Source: an uncultured Chloroflexia bacterium (GTDB lineage Bacteria; Chloroflexota; Limnocylindria; Limnocylindrales; CSP1-4). Taken from it: a stretch of DNA of 64,000 nucleotides. A program made the translations under genes and the position numbers. This document shows, in pieces, positions 2,684 to 34,679 of this stretch. The DNA lies in NCBI GenBank assembly GCA_963740825.1, contig CAVUFD010000002.1, forward strand, positions 968,944-1,032,943, written 5' to 3'. The notes under the pieces are model-generated. The model was not told where the DNA came from, did not search any database, and saw only the letters and a program-made list of their open reading frames with translations. Numbering within the stretch: the stretch's first letter is position 1; each line of letters begins with the position of its first letter.

Positions 2684-3079
2684 CCTCGCCTCCCGCGAAC
2701 TCTCACGCACCTGGTCGGGGTGCGGCTACGCACCAAACGATAGCCCAGGGTTGATGACCTAAATGGCGGATGGCGGTCCCGGGATTGGAGGGGTTCACTA
2801 CAAACCCATCGGCGTGGCATACTTCCCCGGTCCAGGGGGATGCCCACCCGAACGCAGACAGGCCCACAACCGAAGAGCCGTCGTCACGGACAGGCACCTG
2901 TCGCGCCCCATCGGGTGGCCCGCCCACCCGGCCCCGGATCGTCCCAGGCGATCCACGTCGCCCGCCCTGCGGTTTCCGACGCGCCGCCCCCCGCCGCCCC
3001 TGCGCTGCCCCCGACGGCCACCACTCCCACCGTCGCCCTGCCCCATGCATGGCGTTCCGGCAGAGAGGAGGCAAGACGA

Positions 3080-29758: not shown

Positions 29759-30208
29759 TCAGCGCGGCGGGTCGCCCTCGAAGGCGCGCTTGGCCCCGCC
29801 GACCGCCGCGCGCACGCCCCAGCCGGCCGGGATCGCCATCACGGCCTCGTGGACCCACCCGAACGGGCCCCACAGGCGCGATCGGAGCTCGGCCACCTGG
29901 TGCACCCACGTGCCCGTGCCGCGCTGGTCGAACGTGATGACGAGGGCGTTCTCCATGCCGAACGCGTCCGAGACGTGCACCTGGCGGGTGGGGCGACGGT
30001 GCTCGACGATCTCCCACTGCTCGACCGTGGGGATGCCGGCGAGCCTGGTGCGCTCGCGATAGATGGTGCCGACGCGGGCCGGCCCGGAGACATAGAGGAT
30101 CTCGCTCACGAACGGCACCCAGAGCGGCGTGCCCTCGATGTCGTCGTAGAGCTTCCAGACCTCGTCACGCGAGGCACCGACCAGCGCCTCGGCCTCGACC
30201 CTTCGCAT
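29759..30208 (-). CDS. SRPBCC family protein
   Basis: ASRDEVWKLYDD...PLWVP. Confidence 0.75.
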   Translation of the reverse strand: MRRVEAEALVGASRDEVWKLYDDIEGTPLWVPFVSEILYVSGPARVGTIYRERTRLAGIPTVEQWEIVEHRRPTRQVHVSDAFGMENALVITFDQRGTGTWVHQVAELRSRLWGPFGWVHEAVMAIPAGWGVRAAVGGAKRAFEGDPPR

Positions 30209-30352
30209 CGCTGGCCAGTATCCCAGAGCCCGCGAGACCGGCGCGAACCCGGGCGTCGGGGGACCGTGCCTGACGGTGGTCGAGCCGCGCGCCGAACACC
30301 TCCATGACAAGGGCCTCGCGCCTGCCGTCGACCGGTCGACGGAGCGGCGATT

Positions 30353-30386
30353 CATGACAGGAACTGGCACCATCTGCCGATAGGAT
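30353..30386 (+). promoter_or_regulatory. Putative WYL-activator-dependent promoter
   Basis: CATGACA-N5-TGGCACC; TGGCAC-N10-TAGGAT. Confidence 0.6.
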
Positions 30387-30423
30387 TCGGGATGTAGACA
30401 GGTCGATGTGGACGAGGTGTTCC

Positions 30424-30618
30424 ATGCTCACGATGTCGCTCATCGCAGAGGCCATCCAGGCAGATCGCGAGCGCGAGTTCCGTAACCGGCGGCCGCGCGT
30501 TGCGGGCGTCCCGTCGGGGCTTCGGCATCCGCGCCTGGAGCTCGAGCGGTTCGCGAACCGACGTCAGCCCGCCGAGACCGCCGTGGCCGGCACACCGGCG
30601 CTCGCCGGCTCCCGGTAG
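30424..30618 (+). CDS. 64-aa small protein, candidate WYL target
   Basis: MLTMSLIAEAIQADREREFR; GAGGTG SD; overlaps 3' end of WYL gene convergently. Confidence 0.55.
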   Translation: MLTMSLIAEAIQADREREFRNRRPRVAGVPSGLRHPRLELERFANRRQPAETAVAGTPALAGSR

Positions 30619-31571
30619 CGGGCGACAGTCTCGGCCGCCAGCGCGGCGATCTCGGCCCGTAGCTCCGGTGGCTCGAGCACCTCGATCGCGCCGCCGAGCG
30701 CGAGCAGGCGGCCGGCAACCTCGCGGGGCCAGTCGAGGGTCACCCGGATCCGGCGCCACGAATCGGGCTCCGGATCCGGCTCCTCGACGGCCAACGCGAG
30801 CACCGGGGCATCGATGACGTCCTCGAGCCAGCGGGTCGATGTGCGGCGGACGCGAAGGGTCACGTCGATGCGCGGCTGGTCGCGCTCGTAGGCGGTGATC
30901 GATTCGGACCAGTACGTTGCGAGGTCGAAACCCGCGGGGCGGACCGCCTTCTCCGGCAGCGGCTCGACGCCGCGGGCACGCGAGACGCGGTAGGTCCGGA
31001 TCTGGCCGTCGTGGCCGCCGACGAGGTACCACACGCCGGCCTTGAGCACGAGGCCGAGCGGGTCCAGGGTCCGGGTGACGATCGTGTCCGAGCGCGCGTA
31101 GTCGAGCTCCAGGCGCTGGCCGTCCCAGACGCACTGCGCGATCGCTGCCAGGTGGGGCACGTCCTCGCCGGCCCGGAACCAGCCGGCGGCGTCGAGGTGG
31201 AAGCGCTCGAGCAGGCGGCTGGCGCGCCCGCGCAGCTCCGTCGGCAGCGCCGCGAGGACCTTGAGCCGCGCCGCCGCGACGACCGTGCCGAGCCCGAGCT
31301 CGGCGGCCGGCCCGGGCAGGCCCGACAGGAACAGCGCGTCGGCCTCCTCGGTGGTCATGCCGGTCAGCCGGGTGCGGTAGCCGTCGACGAGGCGGATGCC
31401 GCCGTGGGGGCCGCGTTCCGCGAAGATCGGGACCCCGGCGGCGCCCAGCGCCTCGACGTCGCGGTGGATCGTGCGGACGGAGACCTCGAGCTCGCGGGCG
31501 AGCTCCGACGCGGTCATCCCGCCGCGCGCCTGGAGCAGCAGTAGGAGCGAGACGAGCCTCGACGCGCGCAT
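30564..31571 (-). CDS. YafY-like HTH + WYL transcription regulator
   Basis: MRASRLVSLLLLL, ELEVSVRTIHRDVEAL, PLGLVLKAGVWYLV, YRVSR. Confidence 0.95.
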   Translation of the reverse strand: MRASRLVSLLLLLQARGGMTASELARELEVSVRTIHRDVEALGAAGVPIFAERGPHGGIRLVDGYRTRLTGMTTEEADALFLSGLPGPAAELGLGTVVAAARLKVLAALPTELRGRASRLLERFHLDAAGWFRAGEDVPHLAAIAQCVWDGQRLELDYARSDTIVTRTLDPLGLVLKAGVWYLVGGHDGQIRTYRVSRARGVEPLPEKAVRPAGFDLATYWSESITAYERDQPRIDVTLRVRRTSTRWLEDVIDAPVLALAVEEPDPEPDSWRRIRVTLDWPREVAGRLLALGGAIEVLEPPELRAEIAALAAETVARYREPASAGVPATAVSAG

Positions 31572-31577
31572 GGCCAG

Positions 31578-31608
31578 ATGCTAGCAAAAGGCGCCACTCG
31601 GTGTCAGG
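31578..31608 (-). promoter_or_regulatory. WYL gene leaderless promoter with second copy of the 19-bp site
   Basis: CCTGACA-N5-TGGCGCC (31608-31590), then TAGCAT-N6-ATG. Confidence 0.6.
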
Positions 31609-31683
31609 TATCCCGGCGAGAACCGACGAGGTCGTCGGCGGACCATCGCCGGGCCCTCACGGGATCGGGTCTACGATCTGCGG

Positions 31684-33726
31684 GTGATCTCCGAGGACGC
31701 TCCCCAACCGGCCGACCACGAGGTGCCCGATGCTCACGCCGACGAGCCGGCGCCGGTGCCGCCCGTCGCTGAGGCGATCGAGGAACGCGCCGGGTTTCTC
31801 GCCCTCGACCTCGATCCACGGCTGCTCCACACGCTCGCGGACCTGGGCTATGAGGAGCCGACGCCGATCCAGATGGCGGCGATCCCGCCGCTGCTCGGTG
31901 GCAAGGACCTCCTCGCGGAGGCGCCCACCGGCACGGGCAAGACCGCGGCGTTCGCCCTGCCCGTCCTCAACCGGCTGTCGATCCGGCTCGACGAGCTCCG
32001 CGCGCGCGGCGAAGCGGCCGACGGCCGCGGCGCGCCCCGCTCGGGCGAGAAGGGGAGCCGGCCGCGGTCGCTCGTGCTGACGCCGACACGCGAGCTCGCG
32101 ATGCAGGTCGCCGAGGCGATGCACCGCTACGGTCGCGAGCTTGGGGCGCGGGTCGTGCCCGTCTACGGCGGTCAGCCGATCACCGCCCAACTCCACCGCC
32201 TCGGCCGGGGGGTCGACGTCATCGTCGCGACGCCGGGCCGCGCGGTGGACCACCTGGAACGTGGGTCGATCCGCCTCGACGAGGTCGAGACCGTCGTGCT
32301 CGACGAGGCCGACGAGATGCTCGACATGGGATTCGCCGACGACCTCGAGCGGATCCTGGGCTCGCTGCCCGAGGTCCACCAGACGGCGCTGTTCTCCGCC
32401 ACGATCTCGGCGCCGATCGCGCGACTGGCCGGCCGGCACCTGCGACACCCGGTCCAGGTCAGGGTGCAGTCCGAGGCGGCCGCCGGTGAGGCCTCGCGGG
32501 TGCGCCAGGTCGCGTACGTCGTCCGCCGGGCCGACAAGCTCGCCGCCCTCGGCCGCATCCTGGACGTCGAGGACGGGACAGCGACGCTGGTGTTCGCGCG
32601 CACGCGCGGCGAGGTCGACGACCTGGCCGAGGCGCTCAGCGGGCGCGGCCGCGACGCCGCCGCCCTGCACGGCGGCCTGGCGCAGGAGCAGCGCGACCGG
32701 ATCATGGGCCGCTTCCGCGACGGCGCCCTCGACGTCCTCGTCGCCACCGACGTCGCCGCGAGAGGCCTCGACATCGAGCAGGTGACGCACGTCGTGAACT
32801 ACGACGTGCCCTCGTCGCCCGACGTCTACGTCCACCGCATCGGCCGGACCGGGCGCGCCGGCCGCGAGGGCGTCGCCATCACCCTGGTGGAGCCGCGCGA
32901 GCACCGGCTGCTCCGCGACATCGAGCGGACGATCGGCGCGCCGCTCGAGATCGTCGGGCTGCCGACGGTCGCCGACGTGCGCGAGAAGCGGCTGGAGATC
33001 CTGCGTGGCACGCTGCGGCAGACGCTCCTCGGGGACGGCTTCGACCGCTACCGCGCGGTCGTCGAGCCGCTGTCGGACGAGTTCGACCTGGTCGACATCG
33101 CCCTCGCCGCGATCAGCCTCGCCGACGAGGGGGCCCGGGGTGCCGAGGACACGGTCGAGCTCGCGCCCGCCACGCTGCCGCCGGCGTTCGGGGACCGCGG
33201 AGCCGCGAATCGAAGCGGGCCCAATCGCCGCCCGAAGCCGGCCGTCGCCCGGGGTGCCACCCCGTGGGAGGCGCCGGGTCGCCGGCCGCCACAGCGGCAT
33301 GGCGCCCCGCCGCCGTACGGGGCTCCGCCGGCCGGCGCGGGCGAGGCCGGCGACGGGCGTCCGCAACGCCTCCATCGCCCGGTTCCGCACGGGGCCTCAG
33401 CGCCCGTACGGGGCTACCGGGTGAGCGGCTGGCGCGACGCAGAGGGCCGCCCGGTCATGCGATCGCCGCGCGGTGCACCCGCCAGCCCCGACGTCACTCG
33501 GCTGTTCGTCGGGGCGGGCCGGGCAGCGGGCATGCGGCCCGGGGACCTGGTCGGGGCGATCGCCAACGAGGCGGGGCTCTCCGGCGGGGACATCGGGGCG
33601 ATCCAGATCGCCGATGGCTTCTCGCTCGTGGACGTGCCGGCCGATGCCGCGGACCACGTGATCAGCGCGCTGCGCGGTGCGACGATCCGGGGCCAGAAGG
33701 TGAACGTCCGGCGCGAGCGCTACTGA
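31684..33726 (+). CDS. deaD: DEAD-box RNA helicase DeaD/CsdA with DbpA RNA-binding domain
   Basis: APTGTGKT, PTRELA, DEAD, SAT, HRIGRTGR; C-terminal LFVGAGR...GDLVGAIANE. Confidence 0.9.
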   Translation: MISEDAPQPADHEVPDAHADEPAPVPPVAEAIEERAGFLALDLDPRLLHTLADLGYEEPTPIQMAAIPPLLGGKDLLAEAPTGTGKTAAFALPVLNRLSIRLDELRARGEAADGRGAPRSGEKGSRPRSLVLTPTRELAMQVAEAMHRYGRELGARVVPVYGGQPITAQLHRLGRGVDVIVATPGRAVDHLERGSIRLDEVETVVLDEADEMLDMGFADDLERILGSLPEVHQTALFSATISAPIARLAGRHLRHPVQVRVQSEAAAGEASRVRQVAYVVRRADKLAALGRILDVEDGTATLVFARTRGEVDDLAEALSGRGRDAAALHGGLAQEQRDRIMGRFRDGALDVLVATDVAARGLDIEQVTHVVNYDVPSSPDVYVHRIGRTGRAGREGVAITLVEPREHRLLRDIERTIGAPLEIVGLPTVADVREKRLEILRGTLRQTLLGDGFDRYRAVVEPLSDEFDLVDIALAAISLADEGARGAEDTVELAPATLPPAFGDRGAANRSGPNRRPKPAVARGATPWEAPGRRPPQRHGAPPPYGAPPAGAGEAGDGRPQRLHRPVPHGASAPVRGYRVSGWRDAEGRPVMRSPRGAPASPDVTRLFVGAGRAAGMRPGDLVGAIANEAGLSGGDIGAIQIADGFSLVDVPADAADHVISALRGATIRGQKVNVRRERY

Positions 33727-33732
33727 GCGGCC

Positions 33733-34578
33733 CTACGTCGACCCTGTGCTCTGGTCGCGCAGGTAGCGCTCGATCTCGGTGATCAGGTCGTCGCCGGCGG
33801 GCAGCCGCGACTCGTCGACCATCGACTCCAGGCGCTCGACGTACTGGCGCGTGGTGTCGTCGGCGGCGGTCGCGGCGTCCAGGCGGATGCGCAGCTGACG
33901 CGCCTCGTCGGCGAGGTCGCCGCGGGGCAGCTCCACGTCGAGATGGCGCTCGATCGCGCGCATCAGCTCCACCGACGCCAGCGCGTACGGGCCCTGGACG
34001 TAGTGGGGGATCTGGGCGAAGTAGCCGACGGCCGGGATGCCCGCGTCCGAGACCGCCATCTCGAGCATCGACAGGGCGGCCGACGGCACGCGCAGGATGC
34101 CCGTCGGGCCGGCGGTGACGCCGCCACGCAGCAGGCCGGCCTCGGATTCCGTGCCCAGGATCGGCACCGGACGCGTGTGCGGCACCGCGGCGGGGATGGC
34201 GCCGAGGCTGATCCAGCCGCGCGCGCCGAGGCCCTGGAGGATCGTGACCACCGAGTCGGCGAGCAGGTGCCACCGGTCGTCCGGCTCGCTGCCGGTCAGC
34301 ACGAGCAGGTCGAGACCGCTGAACCGGGCGAGGCGGAGCGACACCTCGGGCCAGGCGAGCGACGTGAGGCGGCCGTCGCGGATCTCGAGGGTGGGGCGGC
34401 GCGACCGATAGTCGAACAGCTGGTCGGGGTCGAAGGTGGCGATCGGCTCGCCCTCGTCGCCGAGTATCGACAGCACGCTGGTCGCCGCCGTGCCCGCGTC
34501 GACCCAGCCGTCGAAGGCCGCCAGCACGATCGGATCGACGATCGCCGGCTGCGGCTCGGTGAGGTGGTAGAGCGCCAT
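33733..34578 (-). CDS. PAC2 family protein (proteasome-assembly-chaperone-like)
   Basis: AAFDGWVDAG, LFDYRSRRP, VPHTRP, AQIPHY. Confidence 0.9.
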   Translation of the reverse strand: MALYHLTEPQPAIVDPIVLAAFDGWVDAGTAATSVLSILGDEGEPIATFDPDQLFDYRSRRPTLEIRDGRLTSLAWPEVSLRLARFSGLDLLVLTGSEPDDRWHLLADSVVTILQGLGARGWISLGAIPAAVPHTRPVPILGTESEAGLLRGGVTAGPTGILRVPSAALSMLEMAVSDAGIPAVGYFAQIPHYVQGPYALASVELMRAIERHLDVELPRGDLADEARQLRIRLDAATAADDTTRQYVERLESMVDESRLPAGDDLITEIERYLRDQSTGST

Positions 34579-34679
34579 GGGCGAAGGATAACGGGGGCCG
34601 GTCGGCCCTCGACCGGGCACGGGATCGGGTGCATCCTGAGCGGGTGTCGGGGGTGTCCTCCGAGCTATGGGGTGTGCCG

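Follow-up and report, generated by a model that had tools for sequence, protein, structure and literature searches.

To our knowledge, work on WYL-domain activators of transcription has so far been confined to Actinomycetota and Proteobacteria. PafBC of mycobacteria is such an activator, acting by 'sigma adaptation' (PMC8635444, PMC11804915), and PafBC, SiwR of Mycobacterium smegmatis and DriD of Caulobacter all work on promoters without a -35 element, at which their site lies at a fixed distance from the -10 hexamer (PMC8635444, PMC10693628, PMC13004042). DriD and DdaA of Acinetobacter are homodimeric WYL activators that use a GTC-containing pseudo-palindrome and whose key output is a small damage-induced protein, DidA and AciT, respectively (PMC9186387, PMC13004042, PMC13010146). 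CapW and BrxR are WYL repressors of phage-defence operons (PMC11662680, PMC9122601). Here we describe a locus of an uncultured Chloroflexia bacterium (GenBank assembly GCA_963740825.1), found in a 64,000-nt stretch of contig CAVUFD010000002.1 (positions 968,944 to 1,032,943, hereafter the window), in which the gene of a WYL regulator is bracketed by two 19-bp operators, O1 and O2 (Table 1). O2 lies at the regulator gene's own promoter and O1 ahead of a convergent open reading frame (ORF) of 64 amino acids (aa). By analogy with the described activators we favour, with moderate confidence, a two-gene module in which a dimeric WYL factor would activate the promoter of the small gene as PafBC, SiwR and DriD do.

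The preliminary description of this DNA, made from its letters, had named the regulator a WYL protein. Pfam agrees, placing HTH_11 at residues 9-58 (5e-15), WYL at 139-203 (1e-16) and WCX at 233-314 (2e-12) of a single 335-aa chain, which has the winged helix-turn-helix (wHTH)-WYL-WCX architecture of YafY/PafBC-like chains of about 320-335 aa. The generic WYL model of PADLOC matches it at 7e-45, and NCBIfam returns just weak HTH matches far below the cut-off. The nearest solved structures in a PDB search are DriD (E 4e-7) and PafB of M. smegmatis (E 2e-5), and the search, taken to E values of up to 1, returned neither CapW nor BrxR chains. Although it shares domain architecture with PafBC, the similarity to it is thus remote and the phylum here is Chloroflexota. 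Furthermore, PafBC is a heterodimer of the tandem paralogs pafB and pafC, whereas here a single WYL gene stands without a tandem partner.

A search of the genome collection with the WYL protein resulted in 80 loci. Seventy-two of these, at 59-95% identity, come from metagenome-assembled genomes labelled Limnocylindria, Limnocylindrales or Chloroflexota; the rest, at about 50%, are from Gaiellaceae and two further actinomycetes. Accordingly, the window is assigned to a Limnocylindria-type member of the Chloroflexota and not to an actinobacterium. Across all 80 loci the recognition helix, VS[V/E]RTIHRDVEAL, hardly varies, matching the conserved operator. More specifically, R33-T-I-H-R37-D pairs with R46-M-F-E-R50-D of PafB in a phmmer alignment to chain AY of 7p5x, and R46 and R50 of PafB are reported to read the two guanines of the GTC triplet (PMC8635444). 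The operator half-site contains GTC, or GGC in the window. In the WYL domain, RTYRVSR (residues 192-198, kept in 78/80 loci) aligns with RSWRLDR of DriD and RTFRLSR of PafB, an arginine motif shared with both. Residues Y158, R167, R192 and R195 align with the single-stranded DNA (ssDNA) contacts Y168, R178, R204 and R207 of DriD, so that four of the six key contacts are identical.

The bracketing of the regulator gene by two related sites is a conserved architecture and not a coincidence. Both 19-bp sites stand where the preliminary description had put them and read exactly as it had spelled them. A scan with the pattern TGACA-N5-TGGCRCC, which it had proposed as a check, was run on the 64 kb of the window and matched O1 and O2 and nothing else, against a shuffle expectation of 0.03 and with two or more matches in none of 100 shuffles. 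Because this pattern had been drawn from O1 and O2 themselves, an independent test was added, using a 25-nt weight matrix trained on the operators of other genomes, with the window and its two closest relatives left out. In the 64-kb window, O1 is the best match of this matrix at 27.4 bits and O2 the second best at 13.0 bits, followed by a third at 6.6. For 100 simulated 64-kb sequences the mean score was 6.3 bits for the best match (maximum 20.5) and 3.5 bits for the next (maximum 11.3). A generic repeat finder applied to 30150-31750 did not single out O1 and O2 among many GC-rich chance repeats.

It is hardly credible that O1 and O2 are ordinary -35-like TGACA boxes, alike by chance and served by no dedicated factor. 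The search pattern was indeed defined after sight of both sites, and CTGACA-18-TAGCAT at O2 would make a plausible stand-alone sigma-70-type promoter. Nevertheless, a matrix trained on foreign sequences picks out exactly these two sites from the 64 kb; in full, the element is a palindrome of 19-25 bp, often perfect, which a -35 box has no need of; and a WYL homolog lies beside about half of the 120 metagenome matches listed in the scan described below.

Of the 72 related loci, 67 have an operator upstream of the WYL gene, 61 have one downstream and 58 have both. The upstream copy lies about 40 nt ahead of the WYL gene and the other 130-350 nt past its stop codon. These loci covered about 7 kb per genome and 464 kb in all, within which the matrix gave seven matches elsewhere. 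One clade has an operator that is either extra or displaced, 1-1.7 kb downstream of the WYL gene (L021 at 5213, L033 at 5673, L046 at 5057, L050 at 5128, L065 at 5047 and L069 at 4985), which might mark a further target. A lone half-site, CATGACA, is also present at window positions 30303-30309, 50 bp upstream of O1, without a matching right half.

As a correction to the preliminary description, the conserved form of the site is not a one-sided PafBC box. The family consensus is a two-sided palindrome, CATGACA-N5-TGTCATG, perfect in many genomes, of which O1 and O2 are degenerate copies; the position orthologous to O2 bears the full palindrome in more distant clades, for example CATGACAcgcagTGTCATG in L022. 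Since the regulator is encoded by a single gene and its site is two-sided, we presume a homodimer with both HTHs on the DNA. PafBC, in contrast, uses a one-sided element and serves about 150 genes, compared with two sites in 64 kb here. SiwR offers a closer likeness, being a single-gene wHTH-WYL-WCX factor that forms a homodimer and occupies an imperfect palindrome of 19 bp that lies between positions -35 and -10 of its adjacent target promoter (PMC10693628); the two sites are likened by length and position, not by letters. The DriD site is ATACGAC-N7-GTCGTAT, of 21 bp (PMC13004042), and thus differs in half-site and spacer from the family palindrome ATACATGACA-N5-TGTCATGTAT.

A further line of evidence is the geometry of the small-ORF promoters. 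The preliminary description had seen a PafBC-like spacing ahead of the 64-aa ORF, with TGGCAC 10 nt from TAGGAT, and this holds well beyond the window: exactly 9 nt separate the proximal 7-mer of the operator from the -10 hexamer in 60 of the 61 small-ORF promoters. The hexamer at this N9 position reads TAnnnT in 42 of the 61 and [G/C]AnnnT in 18 more, and the last case is a doubtful match with four mismatches. Counted from the hexamer of the half-site, the arrangement is TG[G/T]CA[T/G]-N10-TAnnnT, which has the spacing of the published PafBC consensus tGTCgg(N10)tA(N3)T (PMC8635444); the form TGTCGG-N10-TANNNT that the preliminary description had given for mycobacterial PafBC agrees with the published one. 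In its build, the small-ORF promoter resembles the mycobacterial promoters that respond to DNA damage. The nine intervening bases vary between loci, as does the length of the 5' untranslated region.

No TTGACA-like hexamer can be read 16-19 nt upstream of the -10 in the small-ORF promoters, where 21 nt separate the distal TGACA half from the -10. Given the missing hexamer, these promoters read as lacking a usable -35, a further property shared with PafBC and SiwR, with DriD and its target didA, and with DdaA and its target aciT (PMC9186387, PMC13004042, PMC13010146). With the -10 set at -12 to -7, the operator spans roughly -40 to -22, its centre falls near -31 and its proximal half (TGGCACC here, TGTCATG in the consensus) occupies about -28 to -22, the position of the '-26 element' of PafBC-type promoters, which the HTH of PafB contacts (PMC8635444). 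The placement is also that of SiwR, the last base of the 19-bp palindrome being followed by 9 nt and then the -10. SiwR requires the -26 region for activation, binds its operator without ligand and takes up ssDNA in its WYL domain (PMC10693628). Transcription of the small gene is predicted to start near 30393. The predicted start is the A of an ATG that is followed directly by TAG (a start-stop at window positions 30393-30398); the closest relatives differ here, L001 having GTG TCA.

Based on this geometry we propose the following mechanism. A dimeric wHTH-WYL-WCX factor would recognise the 19-bp palindrome on two promoters, its own and that of the convergent 64-aa gene. On the latter, it would hold RNA polymerase carrying the housekeeping sigma factor at a promoter that has a -10 and nothing more, by stereospecific contact. 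Activation would probably follow the binding of a ligand to the WYL domain, by analogy a single-stranded nucleic acid. Once induced, transcription of the small gene would run antisense into the regulator gene, with possible negative feedback; such run-through is suggested by the overlapping 3' ends of the two genes and by the lack of any terminator-like site in a scan of 30100-31800. Protein binding, activation as the direction of control, a nucleic-acid ligand and possible induction by DNA damage are proposed by analogy with PafBC, SiwR and DriD. Activation is favoured mainly because two phyla, with three gene layouts and different targets, keep the spacing to the exact base.

Several observations weigh against this proposal. 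An operator at roughly -40 to -22 would equally suit a repressor that blocks polymerase, and the conserved spacing could come in part from shared ancestry rather than from selection. Promoters consisting of a -10 alone are intrinsically active in mycobacteria. If the same is true in Chloroflexota, a missing -35 is no proof of dependence on an activator. Among the residues of DriD that contact ssDNA, R176 is not conserved, the window protein having V165 in its place. Other WYL factors bind other ligands, for example cyclic di-GMP (PMC11880434). O2 scores just 13 bits in the window and may no longer be bound. In three soil metatranscriptome runs, which are unstranded and in which DNA carry-over is possible, contigs of related strains lie over parts of the WYL gene, one of them (224 nt) reaching 31616, upstream of the predicted WYL start, and no contig lies over the small ORF; these contigs speak neither for nor against the proposal.

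The same operators could instead serve a repressor of the CapW/BrxR type, which would block both promoters without ligand and be released by it, derepressing both genes. At both promoters, the operator covers the -35 region together with the spacer, and at O2 its left half coincides with a good -35 (CTGACA-18-TAGCAT). Autoregulatory sites placed right on a gene's own core promoter are typical of repressors. CapW and BrxR share with the regulator the wHTH-WYL-WCX architecture, and they bind as dimers to palindromes of about 20 bp in their own promoters, which they autoregulate and from which they are released on binding ssDNA (PMC11662680). We nevertheless regard this explanation, the main rival, as unlikely, though well worth keeping in mind. 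Without a -35-like hexamer at 16-19 nt, and with the TGACA half 21 nt from the -10, a repressor would find little to compete with at the small-ORF promoters. A steric block needs no fixed distance between operator and -10, yet that distance is fixed in 60 of 61 loci and in the Actinomycetota layouts as well, and it equals the spacing of the activator PafBC. The PDB search leads to DriD and PafB. CapW and BrxR sit beside defence systems, whereas no defence genes flank this locus and PADLOC gives just generic WYL/Cas-associated models; the promoter geometry here points to activation.

The regulator's own promoter is arranged differently. The preliminary description had proposed that the factor regulates itself with a different spacing, TGGCGC being 7 nt from TAGCAT. 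The measured spacing is as it had stated, and the difference is real: after the 7-mer it is N6 in the window, N6-N7 in the larger clade to which the window belongs and N8 in 35 of 70 loci, compared with N9 at the target. Counted from the hexamer, the window's N7 does not fit the N10 motif of PafBC. What has to be revised is the nature of the site, since the copy here has decayed into a -35-like element. In the window and its nearest relatives (L001-L005 and L019), the right half of O2 has degenerated to TGGCGCC or a similar sequence, and the spacing is reduced, which brings CTGACA to 17-18 nt from an extended -10. In a promoter scan, CTGACA-18-TAGCAT is the sole sigma-70-like promoter in the region, with 9/12 matches plus the TG, and it had no equal in 50 shuffles.

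An ordinary -35/-10 promoter is therefore the probable source of regulator transcripts in this lineage. The half-site that remains falls on the -35, so that residual binding of the factor at O2 would probably dampen rather than boost expression of the WYL gene, and self-regulation would be weak or negative. Throughout the family, the -10 hexamer lies 5-7 nt ahead of the ATG or GTG of the WYL gene, and the regulator mRNA is thus predicted to be leaderless. In metagenome loci with a WYL homolog, it is usually the WYL gene itself that starts about 6 nt past the -10, that is, N9 occurs at the regulator's own promoter; other clades would then use for the regulator the geometry that Limnocylindria reserve for the small ORF.

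On the evidence of its sequence and that of its relatives, the 64-aa ORF is a real protein-coding gene. In the related loci the operator equivalent to O1 is always followed by a -10-like hexamer, a leader of 30-70 nt containing GAGG or GGAG, and an ORF, 45-90 codons long, on the strand opposite to the WYL gene. GAGG or GGAG precedes the start codon in almost all orthologous loci, the start codon is conserved and the frame stays open across indels. Searches with tblastn and a hidden Markov model matched the small protein in closer loci and a related N-terminus in distant clades, with 47 of 55 candidate small ORFs scoring at least 10 bits. The N-termini read MLTMSLIAEAIQADREREFRNRRPR... in the window, MHDLELARLIHADREREVARDLRVR... 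in L040 and MLNLELARIVVAERRRTTDERVRQ... in L071, and the consensus is M..ELARII.ADRERE....R.R. Pairwise comparison of 19 orthologs gave 2115, 1705 and 3122 differences at codon positions 1, 2 and 3, and among codons differing by a single base 1436 synonymous against 960 non-synonymous changes. Amino-acid conservation holds where the DNA has diverged.

The small protein also defines a family of its own. Independent gene callers have produced 125 clusters at 90% identity, all named 'hypothetical protein' and without a Pfam domain. A profile search of 1.84 billion representatives returned 279 small-protein representatives at 50% identity, all short and stand-alone; in this search the protein was never part of a larger one and no link to a known domain emerged. 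For the protein and five relatives, Pfam (E up to 10), NCBIfam and PADLOC gave no match. The preliminary description, which had spoken of an unknown microprotein, thus proves apt for a gene that is conserved, coding and unannotated. Its association with the regulator is equally constant: the small-protein gene adjoins a regulator gene in every locus checked, and two distant representatives lie on their contigs convergent to an HTH_11/WYL/WCX gene, with a gap of 7 nt.

Strong constraint is confined to the first 25-35 residues or so. An AlphaFold2 model built from 109 sequences has a helix at residues 2-21 with a predicted local distance difference test (pLDDT) score of about 82 and is of low confidence elsewhere, and no hydrophobic segment is found in the protein. 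We read the product as a highly charged, probably soluble and cytoplasmic protein, with one conserved helix followed by a disordered basic tail, whose most likely mode of action is to bind another macromolecule. A damage-induced effector is suggested by analogy with the DriD-didA and DdaA-aciT pairs. DidA and AciT inhibit cell division and show no detectable similarity to the 64-aa protein, and neither sequence similarity nor a membrane segment in the small protein supports a role as division inhibitor.

We give very little credence to the alternative that the element downstream of O1 is an antisense or regulatory RNA directed against the regulator mRNA and that its ORF has no functional protein product. 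An RNA of this kind would cover the 3' end of the WYL mRNA. In the window, the last 55 nt of the small ORF cover the 3' end of the WYL coding sequence (CDS), the convergent overlap that the preliminary description had noted, and the 3' ends of the two genes overlap in 29 of 42 loci. The scan described above showed no terminator, and conservation is limited to the first 25-35 codons. However, the conserved Shine-Dalgarno sequence and start codon, the frame kept open despite indels, the excess of third-position and synonymous changes and the conservation of amino acids over diverged DNA all speak for a protein. The CDSs do not overlap in 13 of 42 loci and the small gene of Gaiellaceae is divergent, so that pairing of the two transcripts is not the conserved function. 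An Rfam scan of the whole window matched no family at the gathering score. Antisense and protein roles of the small gene could also coexist.

Considered as a whole, the locus works most like SiwR and DriD, with the spacing of PafBC, if the analogies hold. Four identities were considered for the regulator and set aside. It is not PafBC, given its single gene and palindromic site, nor DriD, given the different site, nor CapW or BrxR, which would call for a defence context. Identity with SiwR could not be demonstrated without DinB-type neighbours: the targets of SiwR are divergent genes for enzymes of the DinB superfamily (DinB_2/DUF664), whereas the candidate target here is a convergent small ORF without a domain. 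No DinB-like gene was seen among the loci inspected, and the neighbours in the window are an SRPBCC gene, a DEAD-box helicase gene and the small ORF.

A literature search for a WYL regulator paired with such a small ORF found nothing. New here are the conserved microprotein partner, the fixed convergent layout with two operators and the occurrence in Chloroflexota. The same promoter logic, a GTC element at a fixed distance from the -10 without a -35, is thereby seen in uncultured soil Chloroflexota, in the form of a palindrome suited to a homodimer, which supports the suggestion of the PafBC and SiwR papers that activation resembling sigma adaptation is widespread. The locus and its relatives also supply a natural spacing series for tests, with N9 at the target, N8 at many of the regulators' own promoters and N6 together with a decayed half-site here. 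The unannotated small-protein family is now defined through its 279 clusters at 50% identity, and regulator and microprotein form a ready pair for learning what the output of a WYL switch is in abundant soil bacteria.

We tentatively hypothesize, well short of an even expectation, that a WYL stress switch of at least two phyla has as its dedicated output a microprotein consisting of little more than a helix, which would represent a new class of induced effector or feedback partner. If so, candidate binding partners of the microprotein would include the regulator itself, RNA polymerase, the ribosome and the division machinery, and the convergent layout without a terminator would give the regulator an inbuilt antisense brake. 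Limnocylindria and Gaiellaceae would then possess a minimal module that senses and responds on its own, in contrast to the large regulons of PafBC, DriD and DdaA.

Table 1. Positions of the operators, promoter elements and genes of the locus in the window
Feature	Position	Strand	Remarks
Operator O1, CATGACA-GGAAC-TGGCACC	30353..30371	+	19-bp imperfect palindrome ahead of the small ORF; extended match 30350-30374
-10 hexamer TAGGAT, small-ORF promoter	30381..30386	+	9 nt past the operator 7-mer, 10 nt past TGGCAC
Shine-Dalgarno GAGGTG	30414..30419	+	4 nt ahead of the small-ORF ATG
Small ORF, 64 aa, MLTMSLIAEAIQADREREFRNRRPRVAGVPSGLRHP...	30424..30618	+	Conserved N-terminal helix, variable Arg/Pro-rich tail
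WYL regulator CDS, 335 aa	30564..31571	-	wHTH (HTH_11)+WYL+WCX (Pfam)
-10 hexamer TAGCAT, WYL gene's own promoter	31578..31583	-	Preceded by TGC (extended -10); ATG at 31571 after 6 nt
Operator O2, CCTGACA-CCGAG-TGGCGCC	31590..31608	-	Left half intact, forming -35-like CTGACA (31607-31602); right half decayed
Polyketide_cyc2/SRPBCC gene	29759-30208	-	Pfam; flanks the locus
DeaD-type DEAD-box helicase gene	31684-33726	+	Pfam; divergent from the WYL gene

The outer neighbours (Table 1) provide one more explanation, namely that O1 controls the SRPBCC gene and O2 the divergent deaD gene, the small ORF being incidental. A palindrome has no intrinsic direction, and when the opposite strands are read each site is upstream of the respective neighbour, O1 about 145 nt from the SRPBCC start and O2 about 76 nt from the deaD start. 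We consider this highly improbable, because neither neighbour is kept across the family whereas the operator and the small ORF are. In L017, operator and small ORF are kept with a different gene beyond them. In L014, conversely, the small ORF is lost and SRPBCC is kept behind its own promoter, with a vestigial site (19.5 bits) that overlaps the end of the WYL gene. In addition, each neighbour has a -10 of its own 6-8 nt ahead of its start codon and 64-130 nt from the operators.

The ATG of the SRPBCC gene (30208, minus strand) stands 8 nt past an extended -10, TGGGATACT (window 30206-30225), which is conserved as CTCTGGGATACT in L001-L016; given this conserved -10, the gene reads as a near-leaderless unit independent of O1. 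The deaD gene starts with GTG at 31684, six bases past TACGAT (31672-31677), and GATCGTAGnCCCGAT is conserved in L001-L005; the helicase mRNA is probably leaderless too. DeaD is adjacent to the regulator in the window's sub-clade alone; elsewhere the upstream gene is PAC2-like. In distant clades (L022, L024, L026, L028-L032 and L042) the gene upstream of WYL ends in ...IERFLRDRGGEST.., resembling the product of 33733-34620 (minus strand) in the window, for which 'PAC2-like' is a reading of the sequence and not the result of a domain search. The deaD gene appears to have been inserted between the PAC2-like and WYL genes in the window's lineage.

Outside the Limnocylindria the operator occurs in other layouts. 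The Gaiellaceae relatives (about 52% identity; L072-L076, around 2940-3000) have a single operator between divergent genes. On the far strand the operator is followed by N9, TAGGCT, 6 nt and the ATG of a leaderless ORF of 44-51 aa, MSDEQQQPELAQVTELQREERRLERLRLV..., which from its sequence is the same kind of charged-helix microprotein in another layout and another phylum. In Actinomadura rayongensis (L078, 4870-4921), CCTGACG-TCGGC-TGTCATG-N9-CAGGAT is found 7 nt from the ATG of a convergent, leaderless, SDR-like gene of 304 aa.

A metagenome scan for CATGACA-N5-TGKCAKG-N9-TAnnnT returned at least 120 loci (L081-L200). In about half of the 120 matches listed, a WYL homolog (39-68% identity, GC 0.5-0.73) lies directly at the site, which indicates that operator and geometry belong to a large WYL clade; the matches listed include many chance matches of low GC and do not define a regulon. 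The divergent layout with a single operator also occurs in L112, L119, L129, L139, L161, L187 and L191.

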